The translations under genes were made by a program, and so were the position numbers. Shown here one piece after another: positions 7,384-17,135 of a stretch of 64,000 bases of DNA (its first letter is position 1; each line of letters opens with the position of its first letter). Location of the stretch: assembly GCA_963514005.1 (NCBI GenBank), contig OY740807.1, positions 29,636,001 through 29,700,000 on the forward strand. Reading direction: 5' to 3'. This stretch comes from Raja brachyura (lineage: Eukaryota). The notes under the pieces are model-generated. The model was not told the origin of the DNA. It did no database searches and saw only the letters and a list, made by a program, of their open reading frames with translations.

Positions 7384-7510
7384 AGTCTGAAGAAGGGTCT
7401 TGACCCGAAACATGCCCCATTCCCCTCCAGAGATGCTGCCTTTCCCACTGAGTTACTCCAGCATTTTGTGTCTATCTTTGGTTTAAACCAGTATCTGCAG
7501 TTTCTTCCTG
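7384..7510 (+). mobile_element. Short Penelope-derived (pseudo-LTR-like) repeat with hammerhead-like core
   Basis: Reads ctgaagaagggtcttgacccgaaac...agatgctgcc...ctgagttactccagca. It is homologous to the 3' end of the Penelope element at 61990-62120. Confidence 0.75.
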
Positions 7511-7761
7511 AGCAGCATGATACATATGTTTTCTACTTGTTGGTCAGGCATATATATATCCAGTGTGGGTCAAGAGGAGGTGTTGCTTGAGTGTAAATCA
7601 TCTGCCCAATCATATAGGTCAAGCTGATGAATCCAAGGCTTGCGTGTTACTTTCCAATCTGTCTGAAGAGCCCCAGGTATGGCAAATATCATTTCATACC
7701 CGAATACATTTGGTCCAATTTCCATACGTGATGCTGCTGATTTAAAGTAATGTCAGTATAT

Positions 7762-8005
7762 GGTAGAAACCAGGGACTGGTTTACTAAGGAAGGGGACAA
7801 ACTGCCAGAGTAACTCAGTGAGTCAGGCAGCATCCTGGAGAACATGGATGGGTGTCAGGTCAGGACCCTTCCTCAGACAGAAGTGCCACCTCTAGCTTTC
7901 TTTCCACCCATCCCTGTAATCAATCTGAAGAAGGGTACCGCCCAGAAGTAATTTATCCAGTGATGCTGCCTGACCCACTGAGTTACTCCAGCATTTTGTG
8001 TCTTT
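7762..8005. mobile_element. Inverted pair of Penelope-derived short repeats
   Basis: A minus-strand copy (gagtaactcag...gcagcatc...cccttcctcagac) is followed by a plus-strand copy (tctgaagaagggt...gatgctgcctgacccactgagttactccagc). Confidence 0.7.
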
Positions 8006-9073
8006 CCGTGGGTTATATGGTACTAGTCCAAACAACGAGCTCGTGGACAGTGATGACAACGAGGTTGCTCTTCAATGAAAGAAGAAAAAAAAAGAATATT
8101 AAACAAATTCATGTGAAATGTTCTGGATCACACTTTGTATAATGTTTACTGCACAGTCATTAGCAGCAATCACGTTTCAAGCTATCCTTTGAGAGCATAC
8201 TTGTTGCACTGATTTCCTATCAGATCTGTTTAAGAACCTGAAATTTATGCAGCACCTTTCACCAATGAGATGTTGGGACATCCCGGAGTATTGCGTATTT
8301 TTAAGATATATCTACTGTTGTAAGTTAAGAAATACAGCTATGAATTTTCATACAGATATTCCACAAACAGCAATGTGATAATGACCTGATAATCTGTATT
8401 TGTGTTGTTGACTCTGGGAGCTATTAACCAAAGCCTTGGGTAGAATTCCCTTACTTGTAGAATATTGTCCTGGGGGGTTTTTTCATCCACGTAAAAAAAA
8501 AATGGAATCTCCAACAGTGCAGAATTCGCTAAATGCTACATCAGGTTCGGGTAAGATGTTATGCTCAAATATTTGGAAAGGTGCTTGTACCTACAGCTTT
8601 CTGATTCAGATGAAAGATAAAGAAAATGCATTGCCCACAAGTTCCCTTAATGCAAATTATACCAAAAATATAGATAACTATGAAAGAGAACACATTAACT
8701 TATTGCCTTTTCAAGTGCAAACATAATAGGTCAAGATTATTCCAGCCAATACTTCATGTAGAGGCTGGTTTGAATCCACAGTAAGATGCCCTCTGTGCAA
8801 AATGAGCTTGGGTGCTTGTAATTAGTTCTTGATGGTCATGAACCTGTCAAAAACATGCTTTTAATTTAGCACTAACTTTAATTAAATCGGTGGCCACACT
8901 TTAAAAGCTACATGGATGGTTTGAATTAGAAGAATTTCATTGATATAAAGAGAAAAACTTCTTCCAAGGCTCTGGCATAACAAGTTGAGGATAATTTTAA
9001 CTGATCCTGTGATAACGCAGTGGGGTCAAAGTGAATATACATCTATGGGTGCTATTCTCCATGGACATAATTG

Positions 9074-9136
9074 ATTTCATTTCGGAGTCACGTGAGTGAC
9101 TTCGTGAAGAGCCCGCCGGCGCGCATGCTCGACATA
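9074..9136 (+). repeat. DIRS left inverted terminal repeat
   Basis: The sequence atttcatttcggagtcacgtgagtgacttcgtgaagagcccgccggcgcgcatgctcgacata is complementary to the ICR (14059-14095) and the right ITR (14285-14320). Confidence 0.92.
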
Positions 9137-9252
9137 TCGTCGTAACGCGTTGCTGCGACGGCTGGCGGTGGAGCGCGCTCCTCGCCAGCCCTTCATAAGG
9201 GGCCACGGAGGTGAGTATTCCACCTTTAGTTGGTGGTCCTTGTTGTCTGATT

Positions 9253-11010
9253 ATGTCTTGCAGCAAGGACATGGATGGGAGTTCGAAGGGCCGGAGGACG
9301 TCAGGACGAGTTCGCCGGTCAACAGTTCCGGGGCCTTTACCATCGGCAGTACCTGCAGCGCAGGCCGGGACTCAGGCAGAGATGTGGGTAAGCCCTGTGT
9401 TCACAGGTCCAGATCCGCCAGCACACCACAGCTCGGAGGAGTTCGACGAGGAGGAGTGTGGTGTGCCGCCAGAGCAGGGGGACCCTGCCATGGCAGTCAG
9501 GTTGTCAGCGGGCTCGCTGGCGACCTCGAGCAGGGCGCGTGCCGTTGCACGGCCTGTTCCACTCAGCCCTCCGAGAAGGGGGAGGGGAGGAGCCCAAAAG
9601 CCTAACCCTGTTAGGGCTAAGGCATTGCCTGTCGCGGAGGAGCGGTCAGGTTCCAGGGCGAGACCCGGGGCGGCTGTGAGGTCCAGCCGGCACACCCCGA
9701 CTCTCGACGCCGGGACGGGTCGGTTGAGTCGGGTCTCGTCGCGGTCGCCGAGCCCCCCATGGATGGGTGGGCGGCACCATGCGTCGGCAACGTCCACGAT
9801 GTGGGCAGCCGGCAAGACTGCGCGGGCCCCAGGCAGCCATGCTTCGGCTGGTGCCGACACCTCGCCGCATGTGCCCTTAGTGGCAGCGGCTTCAGCTCTC
9901 GCTAAACGGAGGCGATTGAACACGCCCGCGCAGGAATCGCGCAGTTTCGCCTCGGCGGCTGTTAGCGACAACTACCGGCACCGGCAGGGCCTCGACGAGG
10001 TGCGGGCCGATGACAGGAGCCCGGTTTTCTTTTCAGAGCCGGAGGACTCCGACCACCTGAGTGTTCAGGGTGAAGGGCGTATTGACCGTATGGAGCGGCT
10101 GCTGGAGCTCCTGCTTCAACGTCAACAACAGCAGGGCAGCAACAGGCACAGGGCGTCTTCACCAACATCTACTATCAGCCTGGAGCAGCACGAGGAGGAG
10201 GTTCTGGTGGATCCCGTACCACCTCCGGTGGAGGTGCCAGCGGAGGAACTTTTGGATGTGGCGACCAAATTCGCGGCCCCACATACGGCTGGTCTTCCTC
10301 TCAATTCAAAGCTGGCAGCCACAGTGGACTTTCTTAATAATCAGGTGCTGCAGGAAGAAGTCCTCATCCAGGCTATGAGCCGTCACAAGGCTCCATCAAA
10401 CTGCAACTCCCTCAACGTGCCTGTGGTCAATACGCCAATATGGGGCAACATCAGTGCGGCTATCCGTCAACAAGAGCTACAATTGCAGCGGATCCTGAAA
10501 CTCCTCACGGCCGGTATTACCGCCTTTGCGCGGTCGGTGGACGAGGACGAGCTGAATTTGGACCAGGAAGATGCTCTGGCCTTATTGTGCGCGACCCAGC
10601 ACGAAATCAACGGGTTTCGCAAAAACAGCATCCGCCCAGCACTCAACCCGAAGTTTGCAGGATTGTGCAAACCACCGCCGCCGCCGCCGCCCCGTCAGCT
10701 CTTTGGTGAGGACCTCTCGAAGAGAGTCAAAGAGCTTGACGAACAAGCCAAAACGGTGGGGATCATGCGCTCTAAGAGTGCCCCCACACCGTCCGGCTCA
10801 AAAGCTCCATACATTTGCTCACGAGGGTCGGCCAGTGCCTCGACGAGGACTCACCCTCTAGCTCCACAACGACAACAACACCAGAACCAGCACCAAGGGT
10901 CTTTTTTAGGACAGGGTCGGCAGAGATCTTTTTGGAAATCGAAGACGCCGCGCCCTCAAGCCAACCCAGCACCTCCACGGCCACCCACACGTGTCAAGGA
11001 CCGCCGGTAA
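9253..11010 (+). CDS. DIRS ORF1 (gag-like)
   Basis: Uninterrupted ORF; the track starts it at GTG 9211, and the first in-frame ATG is at 9253. It has a low-complexity S/R/P-rich N-terminus and a C-terminal region (VPVVNTPIW...RKNSIRPALNPKF...LFGEDL) in the expected gag position. Confidence 0.8.
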   Translation: MSCSKDMDGSSKGRRTSGRVRRSTVPGPLPSAVPAAQAGTQAEMWVSPVFTGPDPPAHHSSEEFDEEECGVPPEQGDPAMAVRLSAGSLATSSRARAVARPVPLSPPRRGRGGAQKPNPVRAKALPVAEERSGSRARPGAAVRSSRHTPTLDAGTGRLSRVSSRSPSPPWMGGRHHASATSTMWAAGKTARAPGSHASAGADTSPHVPLVAAASALAKRRRLNTPAQESRSFASAAVSDNYRHRQGLDEVRADDRSPVFFSEPEDSDHLSVQGEGRIDRMERLLELLLQRQQQQGSNRHRASSPTSTISLEQHEEEVLVDPVPPPVEVPAEELLDVATKFAAPHTAGLPLNSKLAATVDFLNNQVLQEEVLIQAMSRHKAPSNCNSLNVPVVNTPIWGNISAAIRQQELQLQRILKLLTAGITAFARSVDEDELNLDQEDALALLCATQHEINGFRKNSIRPALNPKFAGLCKPPPPPPPRQLFGEDLSKRVKELDEQAKTVGIMRSKSAPTPSGSKAPYICSRGSASASTRTHPLAPQRQQHQNQHQGSFLGQGRQRSFWKSKTPRPQANPAPPRPPTRVKDRR

Positions 11011-12939
11011 CCACGGAGGTGAGGGGGTCTGGTTCTCTCTTTTCTCTCTGTTTAACTTCCCATGTTGGTGGTCGTTTACGGTTGTTTTTGGATGCATGGG
11101 GTAATTTTACTGGTGATGAGTATGTGTTGCGGAATATTCAGGGGCATAAAATTGAGTTTATTAATGGCGACATTCCTCCATCCCAGCACATGCCTGGTCG
11201 TACGTTCAAATTGTCTGCTGCAGAACAGGCAGCAGGTTACAAGGAAATTTTAGGTTTGGAACAGAAGGGTGTGATTGAGAAAACAGTGCATGAGCCAATT
11301 GAATTCGTTTCGAACATATTTACTAGACCTAAGAAGGATGGAGGCTGTCGTGTCATTATTGATCTAACCCGTTTGAATACGTTTGTAACATATACTCATT
11401 TTAAAATGGATACGTTTGAAACAGCCAAATCATTGATTTCTCATGGCTGCTTTATGGCATGCATTGATTTGAGGGATGCATATTATTCAGTATCCATCCA
11501 GAAAGATGATAGAACGTTTTTGAAATTTATCTGGATGGGGCAACTTTGGCAGTATAAGGCTTTGCCTAATGGGCTTACTACAGCCCCTAGATTGTTCACT
11601 AAATTGGTGAAGCCAATCATGGCTTATTTGAGACAACGACATCATATAGTTATGGCCTATTTAGATGATCTTTATTGTGGGCCACACCCTGCAATTGGCT
11701 GAACAGGGTGTTGCAGCTGCTGTCAATATATTTCAACAATTAGGATTCATTGTCCATCCAGAGAAATCAAAGTTCTGCCCTGCCCAGGTAATTAATTACC
11801 TAGGGTTCACGGTGAACTCAATGAGCATGAGGATAACTATACCAATTAACAAAATTGAGGAAGTCACTAAGATGTGCAGAGATTTAATTGGCACCAATAT
11901 ACCATCGATTCGGCATACAGCCACAGTAATTGGCAAGTTAGTGGCTTTGTTTCCGGCAGCACGATATGGACCTTTGCATTATCAGAATTTGCAAAGAGCT
12001 AAAATTACTGCGTTAAAATGGAACGCTGGTCATTACGATCGATCTATGCAGCTGCCGTCCGAAGCGATAACTGAGTTGCAATGGTGGGTGTGTCACATTA
12101 GCAACTCATTTAAGCCTGTCAGGGAGGCTAATCCGGTGGTATATTTACAGACTGATGCAAGCTCCAATGGCTGGGGAGCTACTGATAATTGCTCTAGTTG
12201 TGGGGGTAGATGGGACACCCTTGAGGCATCGATGTTGTTGACTCAAGGGATTAACTATTTGGAGTTGCTGGCAGCATTCCACGGACTTCGTGCATATTGT
12301 TCCAAGCTTGTTGGAGCACACGTCCGTCTCCAAATAGACAACACCACAGCTGTGGCATATTTAAACCATATGGGTGGTACCAGGTCAGTTTCGTGTGACA
12401 AATTGGCTAACTCAATTTGGCTCTGGTGTATTCAAAGAGACATTTGGATTTCAGCTACCTATTTGCCAGGTGAGCTTAATACTGTGGCGGACACCAGGTC
12501 ACGCAAATTTAATGACAACATTGAATGGATGTTGCATCCTGAGATTTTTGCTAAAGTCACAGCCAAATTTGGTAAACCGGACATTGACCTTTTTGCGTCA
12601 CGGTTGAACCATCAGGTACCAGCCTACGTTTCATGGGAACCAGATCCTGGGGCAATAGCGCTAGATGCATTCTCGCTGGACTGGGGGAATTGGGTTTTCT
12701 ATGCCTTCCCTCCGTTTTGCCTCATCAGTCGGGTATTGCGAAAGATTCAGGCAGATGCTGCCAAGGGCATCCTTATTATACCCGACTGGCCCACACAGCC
12801 TTGGTATCCGGTGGTCTTTGACATGCTCAACGAACCTTGGGTCCTTTTGAAGGGTTGCCCACAATTGGTTACTCACCCTGTGTCAGGGGAGCCACATCCC
12901 TGCCATGGCTATTTAAATTTGTTGGCTTGCAGGTTCTGA
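10815..12939 (+). pseudogene. DIRS ORF2 (RT, RNase H, methyltransferase-like domain) with one frameshift at about 11669
   Basis: RT motifs: FTRPKKDGGCRVIIDL, IDLRDAYY, LPNGLTTAPRLF and YLDD. RNase H motifs: QTDAS, INYLELLA, DNTTAV and NTVAD. MT-like motifs: IDLFAS and YAFPPF. The frame shifts right after YLDD. The true start codon is uncertain. Confidence 0.92.
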
Positions 12940-12977
12940 ACGGGCCGTTAGTCCAATACGGCCTCTCGGCTCGGACC

Positions 12978-13916
12978 ATGGATACCATCGGGGCGTCGTG
13001 TCGAGAGTCCACAAGGCGAAGATACCGCTCGCATATTAAGAAGTGGGAAGCCTACTGCAGCCGCTCTCGCATCACGTACGATGACGTGACAATAACCGAC
13101 GTCCTGGAATTCCTCGCGGGGTTGCACCATGATGAACACTTAAGTTACAGTGCCATCAACAGCGCCAGAAGTGCGCTATCATTCTACCTCAAGATTGGGG
13201 TAGGATCCAACAGGCTAGTGTCCAGACTCATGCGGGGTATATTCAATATGAATCCGCCTACACCACGCTATAATATCACCTGGGATGTCAGGGACGTATT
13301 AACCCTGCTCATGACGTGGTCTCCCATGGAAGGGCTCCAACTGGACCAACTCACCATGAAGCTGGTGATGTTACTAGCGCTGACTTCAGCTCAGAGGGTA
13401 CAGACACTACACAAACTGCGTGTCGACAGAATGACATCTACCCCTACAGAAGTAGTCTTTTTCGTTGACGAGCTACTAAAGCAGCATAGACCTGGGTGCA
13501 CAGGGCTGCAGCTGAAGTTCCCGGCATACCCCGCAGATGCTAGGCTATGTTTAGCCTCACATATCCGCCACTATGTCAAGGTGACGGCACGCATCAGAGG
13601 AATGGAGAGATACCTGCTTGTCACTCATAAGAGACCTCATCATCGAGTGACAGTCCAGACGATATCCAGGTGGCTTCGAGTCGTCTTGGGTAAGTCAGGT
13701 ATCGACACTAATGTGTTCAAGTCTCATTCCACCAGGGCTGCATCGACGTCAGCGGCGAGGGTCATGGAGGTGCCCATGGACCAAATTCTCGCCACAGCAG
13801 GATGGGCGAATGAAGCTGTGTTCCAGCGTTTTTATAACAAGCCTGTTGCTGCTCCTCTACAGTTCGCAGAAGCCGTGCTGAATGCAGGTCAAGAACGTGG
13901 AGATGTCCCCGCATGA
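12978..13916 (+). CDS. DIRS ORF3 tyrosine recombinase
   Basis: The frame is open from 12837, and the first ATG at 12978 is in accATGg context. Catalytic pattern: AQR...K...HSTRAAS...GW...FY. Confidence 0.93.
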   Translation: MDTIGASCRESTRRRYRSHIKKWEAYCSRSRITYDDVTITDVLEFLAGLHHDEHLSYSAINSARSALSFYLKIGVGSNRLVSRLMRGIFNMNPPTPRYNITWDVRDVLTLLMTWSPMEGLQLDQLTMKLVMLLALTSAQRVQTLHKLRVDRMTSTPTEVVFFVDELLKQHRPGCTGLQLKFPAYPADARLCLASHIRHYVKVTARIRGMERYLLVTHKRPHHRVTVQTISRWLRVVLGKSGIDTNVFKSHSTRAASTSAARVMEVPMDQILATAGWANEAVFQRFYNKPVAAPLQFAEAVLNAGQERGDVPA

Positions 13917-14058
13917 GGGGTTTTTGATTTGTTATTAATAAATATGCTTTTGTTTTGCAGTATGAGCTATTGAGCCAGTTTGTTCCTCCCATCCATCCCT
14001 GGTAGTGGTGTGTCAGCATGGACGTGGTCCAGGGCGTGTAATCACAGAAGCTTTGAAG

Positions 14059-14171
14059 TCTTCACGAAGTCACTCACGTGACTCCGAAATGAAATAGTAA
14101 GATTGAACGAGAACTTACCAGTTCAAGGGTTGATCTTTATTTCATGAGGAGTCGAAGTGAGGGATTTCGTG
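14059..14171 (+). repeat. DIRS internal complementary region (ICR)
   Basis: The left half is complementary to the element 5' end and the right half to the 3' end. The two halves overlap on AAT (14093-14095), which is the complement of the terminal ATT. Confidence 0.93.
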
Positions 14172-14284
14172 CCCTCCTCGCCCAACCCTCAATCACCTTC
14201 ATCTGGTAATCTTAGTCAATTCAATCATACTATGCGAAGTCATTTCTATTGTTGGTTCTGTGATTCCACGCCGCTACTTTGAAG

Positions 14285-14393
14285 TATGTCGAGCATGCGC
14301 GCCGGCGGGCTCTTCACGAAATCCCTCACTTCGACTCCTCATGAAATAAAGATCAACCCTCGAACTGGTAAGTTCTCGTTCAATCTTACTATT
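14285..14393 (+). repeat. DIRS right ITR plus right extension
   Basis: tatgtcgagcatgcgcgccggcgggctcttcacgaa is the reverse complement of 9101-9136. The extension pairs with the ICR and ends in ATT. Confidence 0.92.
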
Positions 14394-16669
14394 CCTGCCA
14401 ACTAGTCAGCATGTTCTCAAACCTTATTATTCTGAGATGGATATTCATTTCTTCTGCTGGCCGTGAAGTCAATTGAAACACGTTCAGGTTAAATACAATG
14501 CATAAACCTAACTTCCTATTGCATAAGACACACAATGTGCAAGGCCTGAGATCAAACATTTCTTAAGAATTGATGTACCAGCATTTAAATTTGCACACAC
14601 ATATATGGGGTGTAAGTTTACTATTGTCACATGTACCAAGAAAAGCTTTGTTTTGCATGCTATAAAAACAGGTCAGATATACCATATGCCAATACGATCA
14701 AGTCAAACTCAAGTACAGTAGATAGAGCAAAGGGGAAGGTACAGAGTGTAATATATAGGTTTCAGAATTGTAGCACATCAGTTCCATAGACAAAGTCCAA
14801 TGTCCACAATGGGGTCGGGGTGAATCAGACACCATGTTTATAGGTCACAATCAATTGAATTATGGTTTAACATGTTACGATGCACTTTTATAGGATTTTG
14901 ATTTATTCCAGTAAAATTAGAAGAGCAATGGGATATATCAACATTGATAGCATTGTATCACCATAGGTAAGAATAGTGCATGGGACATTATTTCTAGGTT
15001 CATGTGATGTAAATGTAATGCAGTTGTGTTATACTTTGATATATTAATACAATAGAAAGATATTACACAAAACTGTACTTTGAACTCTGCAGTTTTGGGA
15101 ACAACTAAACAGATTGATGTTTCTATTCTCCTATGGAGCAAACTTGGACTGAGCTATTAGAGACATTTAAAATCAGAAATGTGTTGGACAGAACCGAAAT
15201 GGAGAAAATGTCTCAGTTGTGAAAAATCAAAACCCAGGGAATAAAATAGAAATAAGAAATAATAATCAAAATATTGACATAAAGTATTGCTTAATCAGAG
15301 AATGAATGGGTTGTCAAATAAATTGTGGAGTCCACAGCCACTAGAAGAGGTTGAAGCAAGTATGTGGAGTGTTTTCAAATGGTGTTTATGAGGTGCAAGG
15401 TGGGTGGCTAAATAGGTAGGTGTGTCTGCAATGACAACCCTCAATAATGAATATTCTGGCCAATGCTGCCTTTGAAAGCCACTAAGTGCTCTATTAAAAT
15501 CATTGGCAGTTGTACATTGACTCAGTGGCTGTTACCGGAGATACTGTAATTTTCCTTGTCAAAACCATTGTGGCTGACATTAATTTCCAGTAATTATAAT
15601 GTTTGTTCAGTCTTTGTAGATTTGAAAGTTTGTATAAAAAGCTTAGAATGATATTTCATTTTAAGGAGAAATGTCGTCATGCTTGGTGAAACAACTAACA
15701 TGGAGGCATGTATTAATTTGCTCTATTGAAAAGGAGCAAATGGAATATTCACAAACGCTTGACCAAAAATGGAGTAGATCCAAGGTGAAGAGCTATATGG
15801 TTGGGAATGTTAGTCTTTCAATAACATGAAATGCTTCTGAGTTAATTGCTTATCCACAACACATGAGTCTATTAGTCCTTGTGGAGTTGGGAGATGTCTA
15901 TTAGATTGGGCACTGGTTTGGTTAATGTATACTGTGTTGGGCCTCGGGTCAGGAGCTGCTAGGCATTACATATTTATGTGCTTTAGAGTGTGCTGCTCGC
16001 TCCTCAACTCCTAAGGTCATGACCGGGAGGATGGTCACAGGCCTGATTCAGGAATAGTGTGTGTGCTCCATGAAGCACACCTTCAGTCATTGGCAACATC
16101 TATGTCAAGAGCAGGGTGAGTGTTGAGACGGCATTTTATGTGTGCTGGGGAGGAGGGATTGTATTAATTGCTGAGGGTGTGTGGTTAGGAGACTAGTAAT
16201 ACGTTGTGGAGGAAGAGGGATAGCTGATTGTTCGGGATAATGATGAGGATAACAGCCATCAGTGCAGTGAGGACTCAGAGGTGTAAGGATTTAGCCTAGC
16301 TAAGTTTGACCTTATCTCTTTCCTGCTCTTCTCTCCCCGCCCTTGCTCTGACAGTTGACTTAATGGGATTAAAACCATGTAAGCAGGAACAACTCAGTGA
16401 AGGACGTTCCCTGGGGAACTTTGTCCAATCTTTCTTGTAAAGTTCCAAAAAGAATTATGCCTGGGAACACCATTGTGTCTGTTCCTGGCAAGGAAATCCT
16501 AGCAGTGTTGCCAGGGTAACTTTTTCCATAAGTCAGGAAACTGTTCAATTCACCTATACCCCACTGAGAACATTGCACTTTGTCTAAGGAAGTGATGCAC
16601 TACAGTGCTGAGAACTATATTCTGCACTCTGTATCTTCCCTTTTATTCCATTGTACTTGAGTTTTTTTC

Positions 16670-17135
16670 AGTTTCTTATCTTGCCAGAGATGCGATTGTT
16701 TTCCTTGCCTGGGATCGCTCCAACTGCAGTCTGCAGCCGGAGCTCGCAGTCTCGGGAGAGGCTAGTCGGAAGCTCCAACGACTCGACCAGCCCCGACCCG
16801 GGGTCAGATAGCCCGGCACAGGGAGCTGACACCCCCCCCCCCCCCCGATGCAGGAGCTGATCGCCCCGATGCGGAGGGCCCAAACGCCGCCGGCTACGGT
16901 AGTCAAGATCGTCCCGTCAACGGAGGGCCCGAGGCCCCCAACAGCAGAAGAACAAAGAAAGGAAGAGATTTGAACTTTTTTTTGCCTTCCATCACAGTGA
17001 GGAATGTGGGGGAGTCACTGTGGTGGATGTTTATGTTAAATTTTAATTTGTGTGTTACGTTGCTTTTTATTTGTATGACTGACTCGTATGTTGCAAAACA
17101 TACTTGGCTAATAAAGTATTATTGTGATTGATTGA
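16670..17135 (+). mobile_element. CpG-rich non-coding retroposon-like insertion with a LINE-type 3' tail
   Basis: A GC/CpG-rich block ends in acttggctaataaagta...gattgattga, which resembles the 3' tail of the Rex1-like copy at about 28290-28325. It interrupts an older repeat. Boundaries are approximate. Confidence 0.5.

Follow-up and report, generated by a model that had tools for sequence, protein, structure and literature searches.

How the third reading frame of a DIRS retrotransposon, which encodes the tyrosine recombinase (YR), comes to be translated is the question raised by a locus of Raja brachyura. The stretch analysed, called the window here, is 64,000 nucleotides (nt) of contig OY740807.1 (assembly GCA_963514005.1, positions 29,636,001 to 29,700,000 of the forward strand) and contains a full-length DIRS1-like element. 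An earlier note, made from the letters alone, had proposed that a splice from 9210, ahead of the first open reading frame (ORF1), to 12933 gives a subgenomic recombinase mRNA translated from ATG 12978, and had named 11018^12933 as a second junction. Splicing as the route to the recombinase is supported by the present analysis for 11018^12933, and not for the headline mRNA. It is quite likely that YR is made through a splice joining donor D2 (11018) to acceptor A3 (12933), and likely, taking the whole proposal together, that it is also reached by a -1 ribosomal slip and made as a Gag fusion. The parts concerned, numbered from the first letter of the window, are as follows.

9074-14393, + strand: DIRS1-like retrotransposon, full length, with ATT at both ends
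9271-11010, + strand: putative gag (ORF1), 579 codons, from ATG 9271 to TAA 11008-11010
10776-12939, + strand: pol, for reverse transcriptase (RT) and, putatively, RNase H and methyltransferase (MT); frame open from 10776; matches PF00078
12822-13916, + strand: YR frame; predicted YR exon 12933-13916, 327 codons; first ATG at 12978
10902-10908, + strand: slippery heptamer U UUU UUA, which the gag frame reads as Phe-Leu; a -1 shift into the pol frame is predicted here
10908-11018, + strand: pol-frame linker of 37 codons from slip site to D2, predicted to be common to Gag-Pol and Gag-YR
11011-11023, + strand: second copy of a 13-mer, holding donor D2 (GT 11019-11020), in phase 0 of pol and 8 nt past the gag stop
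11019-12932, + strand: predicted 1914-nt intron with the RT, RNase H and MT coding sequence, exactly missing in RT-less sister copies
12915-12932, + strand: acceptor A3 (AG 12931-12932), inside the last Cys-Arg codons of pol and in phase 0 of YR

According to the proposed scheme, ribosomes would shift by -1 at UUUUUUA near the end of gag and enter the 37-codon linker in the pol frame. Unspliced RNA would give Gag and Gag-Pol. Splicing of D2 to A3 would remove the whole RT/RNase H/MT region, and the spliced RNA would give Gag and a Gag-linker-YR protein of about 910 residues (546 + 37 + 327 codons). Such a fusion would bring the recombinase into the particle, as Gag-Pol does with integrase in elements with long terminal repeats.

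Observed directly are the splice signals with their phases and conservation, as well as DNA copies from which precisely this intron is missing. As the earlier note had it, the acceptor AG lies at 12931-12932, the exon starting at 12933 is in phase 0 of the YR frame 12822-13916, and 12978 is the first ATG past the acceptor, in the context ACCATGG. It had overlooked another acceptor at 9262-9263, the heptamer at 10902-10908 and a pol frameshift near 11668. The predicted intron has GT-AG ends near the consensus, is in phase and is conserved, as a U2-type intron would be; its exact removal is seen in a sister family only.

The 2.7-Gb genome holds family A (that of the window), family B (copy L082, 76% DNA identity) and families C and D, the YR of which are 64% and 54% identical to that of B. 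In two relatives at 83% (L081 and L083) the base before D2 abuts the base after A3. A 25-nt stretch of L081, allowing up to 3 mismatches, is found at 104 genomic places (57 + 47; 100 of these matches listed), and its reversed control at none. All 30 of the 30 loci checked have the end of gag directly against the start of YR, with pol missing. In 20 further loci read at length, and in L081 and L083, the element ends are mostly kept and the 5' region is expanded; these RT-less copies retain the 5' intron described below. The 104 loci are one amplified, non-autonomous RT-less family, and we infer that its copies are reverse-transcribed spliced RNA. Trees were built from 10 chosen family-A copies, 17 full-length B copies and 19 RT-less copies, with L135, L142 and L143 left out for partial cover. 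Two changes are required to explain the joint on 46 gag-end rows, where L136 stands apart, and 1 change on 45 YR rows (support 65/16); the joint thus represents one or two events, or one event plus recombination.

Conservation among close copies gives no information here, 75% of all positions being invariant among 37 of them. A distant set was assembled from metagenome contigs: 80 loci with YR 36-48% identical, falling into 44 families. The donor set comprises the 22 distant families that have both the gag end and the pol start, plus A-D (26 families); the acceptor set is the 44 minus 6 without a pol end and 2 with a frameshift or stop, plus A-D (40 families). The 150-nt stretch before the RT start was scanned for the best match to 7 donor consensus positions. 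The best phase-0 donor reaches at least 5/7 in 22 of 26 families versus 16 of 260 windows inside pol, and at least 6/7 in 14 of 26 versus 4 of 260. Donors of at least 5/7 occur in phases 1 and 2 in 6/26 and 1/26 families, respectively. The linker around D2 varies between families in both length and residues.

On the acceptor side, the best phase-0 YAG in the open YR frame has at least 10/14 pyrimidines in 34 of 40 families, compared with 7 and 11 families for the two remaining phases. In 16/40 families TAG is the stop that most closely precedes YR (background 16% of 1157 other stops, p = 3e-4), and in 14 of these 16 the pyrimidine score is at least 10 (background 7%). A TAG behind a pyrimidine tract means that the YR frame opens exactly at the acceptor. 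Depending on the family, the acceptor occupies the terminal Cys-Arg (the case of the window), a position near -79 or near -200, or one past a PPF motif (-214); where it shifts, the start of the open YR frame shifts along with it. PPF-AG is found in 16 of the 23 families whose frame is open from PPF versus 2 of the 17 in which it is closed. Why pol/YR overlaps are long in some elements and short in others, as tabulated in the available part of PMC3266345, could be explained by where the acceptor lies. No in-frame ATG precedes YR codon 102 in 5 of the 40 families. The earlier note had proposed conservation of the donors and the acceptor among relatives as a check; D2 and the acceptor are kept in distant families, whereas the upstream donor, D1, is missing from most.

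In 25 of 26 families a heptamer of the form U6N or A6C stands in register close to where gag ends (versus 6/182 pol and 2/93 gag windows), and in the other two registers in 1/26 and 0/26. In every case it lies 5' of D2 with the pol frame open. The pol frame has no conserved ATG and overlaps gag in the -1 frame. D2 is in the phase of pol, not of gag, and is located past the gag stop. This phase, the conserved gag/pol heptamer and the lack of any heptamer excess in the pol/YR overlap point to one slip serving two RNAs, and it is from them that we infer the -1 slip and the fusion protein.

Several observations weigh against this reading. The window for the D2 scan was chosen post hoc and the scores are plain counts of matches to a consensus, so that, the families also being kin, the p values overstate the case; pol codons account in part for the pyrimidine tract found at PPF. 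L212 is without a good donor and L225 without a phase-0 acceptor, and D2 of the window itself scores just 5/7. The 104 matches trace to just one or two origins, D2 and A3 both carry AGGT so that a template switch could yield the same joint, and the RT-less copies still carry the 5' intron. No spliced D2^A3 DNA copy was found in family A (0 exact-pattern matches, without a positive control), and the single exact-pattern match in families C and D is a chance one (likewise without a positive control). The RNA junction was not seen: among contig joints of 4 runs, 15 of 36 listed, none falls at the predicted sites, nor does any of the 15 of 25 listed from the contigs of one run guessed to be RNA (share 0.16). 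These contig-joint results count neither for nor against splicing. At the slip site, folding (without pseudoknots) gives no clear stimulatory structure, with z values of 0.70 and -0.61 in the window and -0.69 and -2.06 in L082.

Three further features bear on how the signals are to be read.

9203-9215, + strand: first copy of the 13-mer, holding donor D1 (GT 9211-9212)
9211-9263, + strand: predicted 53-nt 5'-untranslated region (UTR) intron, D1 to acceptor A1 (AG 9262-9263), ending 7 nt before the gag ATG
12912-12918, + strand: UUUAAAU, in -1 register in the pol/YR overlap; probably incidental, not kept in B-D

In the 64 kb the 13-mer CCACGGAGGTGAG has exactly two occurrences, starting at 9203 and 11011 (GT at 9211 and 11019), as the earlier note had counted. 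It had suggested that this duplicated donor bracketing gag may control the balance of products, an idea that finds no support. The identity is incidental, since shuffling the element block-wise with its dinucleotides kept yields an exact repeat of at least 13 nt in 105 of 500 rounds and the 5' copy is altered in 21 of 37 close copies, mostly by GTAAG replacing GTGAG. It does not extend past the ends of the 13-mer, and in families B, C and D the sequences at D1 and D2 are unlike each other. A control role for the 13-mer is thus very improbable; the donors and the acceptor exceed chance as correctly phased splice signals, and the repeat does not. The ACG within the 13-mer was also considered as a start codon; it is in frame at both sites but missing at D1 in B-D.

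D1 most likely serves the 53-nt 5'-UTR intron ending at 9263, which appears to be a feature of this genome's families. In each of families A-D it stands 137-138 nt into the element, with a YAG 53-60 nt further on and the gag ATG another 4-9 nt later. The predicted D1-A1 intron measures 51-63 nt in A-D and the RT-less family though the sequences are unlike. GTAAGT is the donor sequence of families B-D and of 22 of 51 A copies. Among the 18 element starts listed, a donor of at least 6/7 in the first 400 nt is present in just 2 distant families. D1^A1 spliced DNA copies gave 0 exact-pattern matches in families A and B, without a positive control. Because every copy seen keeps the 5' intron, it appears that the RNA that is copied retains it. 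One may guess, by analogy with the retroviral major donor, that the intron contains a packaging or priming signal.

Other routes to the recombinase have to be set against these data. A splice of D1 (9210) to A3 (12933), with a free recombinase made from ATG 12978 either alone or beside the D2 route, is unlikely. D1 is the stronger donor and, its own intron being only 51-63 nt, might skip to the far acceptor; the resulting RNA would have a usable ATG in each family here, at codon 15 in A and B and codon 17 in D, with an in-frame exon-1 ATG in 14/17 B and 11/12 C copies, so that a minor product of this kind is conceivable. As D1^A1 copies are missing too, RNA spliced at D1 may never be copied, which would blunt the finding of 0 genomic matches to a D1^A3 joint in families A and B (exact pattern, without a positive control). 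However, D1 is wanting in most distant families while D2 is near universal, Met stands at YR codon 15 (ATG 12978) in only 3 of 40 families with a conserved G-L/I-S segment upstream of it, and in family C the first Met past A3 is codon 104. Also rather doubtful is a real splice combined with termination and restart at the codon just past the gag stop (TAA CC ATG), releasing free Pol or YR. Families B and D, the RT-less family and 2 of 12 C copies carry this ATG, which is in frame with pol and, across the joint, with YR; in L130 it begins an open YR frame of 329 codons, and most RT-less copies have lost the slip heptamer. Yet the codon is ACG in the young family A of the window and TTG in 10 of 12 C copies, and most distant families keep the slip site and have no ATG at this place.

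The two accounts that dispense with splicing are both highly improbable. In one, a second -1 frameshift in the pol/YR overlap, as for Ngaro, would produce Gag-Pol-YR, the splice signals being by-products. Relative to pol, YR is indeed in the -1 frame in 36 of 38 distant families, an in-register UUUAAAU stands at 12912 of the window, and such a frameshift is considered probable for Ngaro by Poulter and Butler 2015, as quoted in the available part of PMC13003380. But heptamers of any kind show no such excess in the overlap (10/40, with a pol background of 42/182 windows), the U6N/A6C type occurs there in 1/40 families against 25/26 at gag/pol, UUUAAAU is missing in B-D, and neither the exact RT-less joint nor D2 would be explained. 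The other derives the RT-less family from an ordinary deletion at microhomology and the splice-like motifs from protein constraint, with nothing spliced. AGGT is indeed common to donor and acceptor, internal deletions with short shared ends are frequent among the copies, and the tree is compatible with a single origin of the joint. Against this, such a deletion could fall at any of 56,467 shared-4-mer pairs in the family-B element, and the joint is the one pair named beforehand; none of the four further deletion joints inspected at base level (L038, L078, L084, L091) is GT-AG; and it would be left unexplained why donors and TAG acceptors are enriched in a phase-specific way in distant families. 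The D2-to-A3 splice behind a gag/pol slip is the reading retained in what follows.

The remaining parts of the element place it among known types.

9074-9136, + strand: left terminus; 9074-9110 complementary to the left part of the internal complementary region (ICR), 9092-9136 inverted relative to 14285-14329
13937-13942, + strand: AATAAA, a possible poly(A) signal, after the YR stop and 5' of the ICR
14059-14171, + strand: ICR, whose left and right parts share AAT at 14093-14095
14285-14393, + strand: right inverted repeat and right extension

The element starts at the same position, to within one base either way, in 37 further genomic copies. The inverted terminal repeats (9092-9136 and 14285-14329) are 96% identical, and the ICR halves match the ends at 100% (14059-14095 with the left end) and 99% (14093-14171 with the right end). 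The AAT overlap of the halves is complementary to the terminal trinucleotide ATT, as in DIRS1-like elements. No long direct repeat of the split Ngaro-like or PAT-like kind occurs in 7500-17000, the terminal repeats being inverted; the flanks of the window copy alone show no visible target-site duplication, and a Pfam search of the element returned no rve match that would indicate a DDE integrase. The element belongs to the DIRS1-like type without a long ORF overlap. Its family has many copies and is young: all 127 of the 127 YR matches scored are 100% identical as rounded by the tool.

In the coding parts, the RT profile PF00078 gives E values of 1.4e-11 in the window and 2.1e-22 in L082. YR is recognised by PF13495 (6.1e-7, above the cut-off) and PF00589 (1.5e-5), and the putative MT region gives a weak PF05869 (Dam) match at 0.0016, below the cut-off. 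A Pfam search of pol gave no match for RNase H, which is assigned tentatively from its motifs. The gag product has zero Pfam matches, LAP2alpha included, and the label relies on position, size and likeness of ORF1 to relatives, the similarity between ORF1 of family B and that of distant elements being 21-41%. The pol of the window copy is split into two frames by the frameshift near 11668, which is private to it (0/36 other covered copies).

Some observations concern the copies and their surroundings. The AATAAA after the YR stop is kept in 24/37 A, 17/20 B, 12/12 C and 7/8 D copies, and is followed in families A, B and C by a U-rich tract ending in CAG (window 13937-13961). Among the RT-less copies (L081, L083, L125-L144) it is found in 0 of the 20 with a YR end, the three listed having AACAAA; loss of this early poly(A) signal might aid ICR-containing RNA of the non-autonomous family. 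In the RT-less family, 1.9-2.4 kb of other sequence replaces the 5' part of gag (L081:1085-3249, L130, L136), with tandem repeats of 108 and 280 nt. L135 and L136 have a differing gag 3' end, an intact slip heptamer and the same exact joint, and represent a second origin or a recombinant. YR matches with odd open-frame lengths (332, 383, 416 and 652 amino acids) were examined as candidate spliced copies and rejected, 3 being full length and 1 an unrelated deletion. An in-frame gag deletion of about 162 nt (window 10187-10350) defines a subfamily of 7 of 37 copies (L049, L050, L051, L054, L057, L064, L066). A 17-nt inverted repeat (14033-14049 and 14256-14272, 94%) flanks the ICR on both sides. 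DIRS elements have inserted into one another: a family-A element sits inside the YR of the RT-less copy L142 near 4761, and in L040 and L067 a 5' fragment precedes the full copy. Upstream of the element, at 7789-8007, lies a short inverted-repeat element with 46-nt arms (85%), probably a miniature inverted-repeat transposable element.

For animal DIRS1 elements as a group, we lean towards a common picture: a slip-plus-splice switch, a mobile acceptor, RT-less families founded by spliced RNA in trans and, in this genome, a second control by the 5' intron. A conserved donor behind the slip would decide between Gag-Pol and Gag-recombinase. The acceptor would have been relocated several times within the methyltransferase region, giving long and short pol/YR overlaps, and spliced RNA could found RT-less families that spread in trans. 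The retained 53-nt 5' intron would be a second control here, perhaps tagging the RNA to be copied. Four RefSeq models from two echinoderms (XP_072032829.1, XP_072043497.1, XP_071483612.1, XP_071502116.1) combine gag, a pol-frame 'FFR' linker and YR, with no RT, in keeping with the proposed fusion; these Gag-YR models are predictions, 4 among 148 homologues plus cluster members. Separately, homologues P0133-P0138 and P0142 (L133-type) have YR frames of 950-1377 amino acids with an extension of 600-1000 amino acids unlike family-B gag or pol, and are probably DIRS elements with a very long pol/YR overlap.

If true, the scheme accounts for YR frames that often have no start codon and for the two lengths of pol/YR overlap. 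The Gag-recombinase fusion would package the integrating enzyme, and splicing would be a route by which non-autonomous families arise. A YR annotated from its first ATG would be truncated, which matters for engineered DIRS assays. The scheme is also relevant to how DIRS gag turned into host exons.

The element is of a known type, with a proposed expression scheme that has probably gone undescribed so far. A literature search, with the main reviews outside its cover, found no account of DIRS splicing or of a gag/pol slip; the papers compared, each through its available part, include PMC6681497, PMC9341512 and PMC5633606, and the splicing in the available part of PMC7192593 is that of a reporter intron. 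The definition of DIRS1-like elements by ICR halves that overlap on a 3-bp junction comes from the available text of PMC3266345. As described in the available parts of that paper and of PMC9210276, these elements share with that of the window the inverted repeats, the AAT junction of the ICR, the ATT ends, the right extension and the order of putative gag, RT with putative RNase H and MT, and YR. The same parts make no mention of splicing, introns or programmed frameshifting, whereas for the window element spliced RNA is the predicted source of YR, and a -1 slip that of pol.

The LAP2alpha exons of TMPO and ZNF451 derive from DIRS1 gag, and the available part of PMC4495291 infers that the colonising sequence brought a splice acceptor and a poly(A) signal. 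In the window, the predicted acceptor A1 (9262-9270 region) lies directly before gag and is of the kind proposed there. The LAP2alpha source is another DIRS lineage, and gag of the window has no Pfam match to LAP2alpha. In the portions of the literature covered, the Ngaro pol/YR frameshift is the only proposal found in print for DIRS downstream frames. An overlap of YR with the pol end, in the -1 frame, is common to the window element and Ngaro-like elements; the slip is placed in that overlap in the Ngaro account available to us (PMC13003380) and at gag/pol in the window element. Ngaro has split direct repeats and no MT, whereas the window element has inverted repeats.

In retroviruses and Ty3/gypsy elements a -1 frameshift yields Gag-Pol and env is expressed via splicing; UUUUUUA is the slippery heptamer of HIV-1. 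The window element resembles them in an X XXY YYZ motif near the end of gag, in a full-length RNA that would retain the intron and in a 5' donor before gag. Unlike in these systems, splicing is predicted to yield the integrating enzyme, the donor is placed 3' of the slip site so that the splice would change what the frameshift enters, and the predicted spliced RNA keeps the element ends and would itself be copyable.

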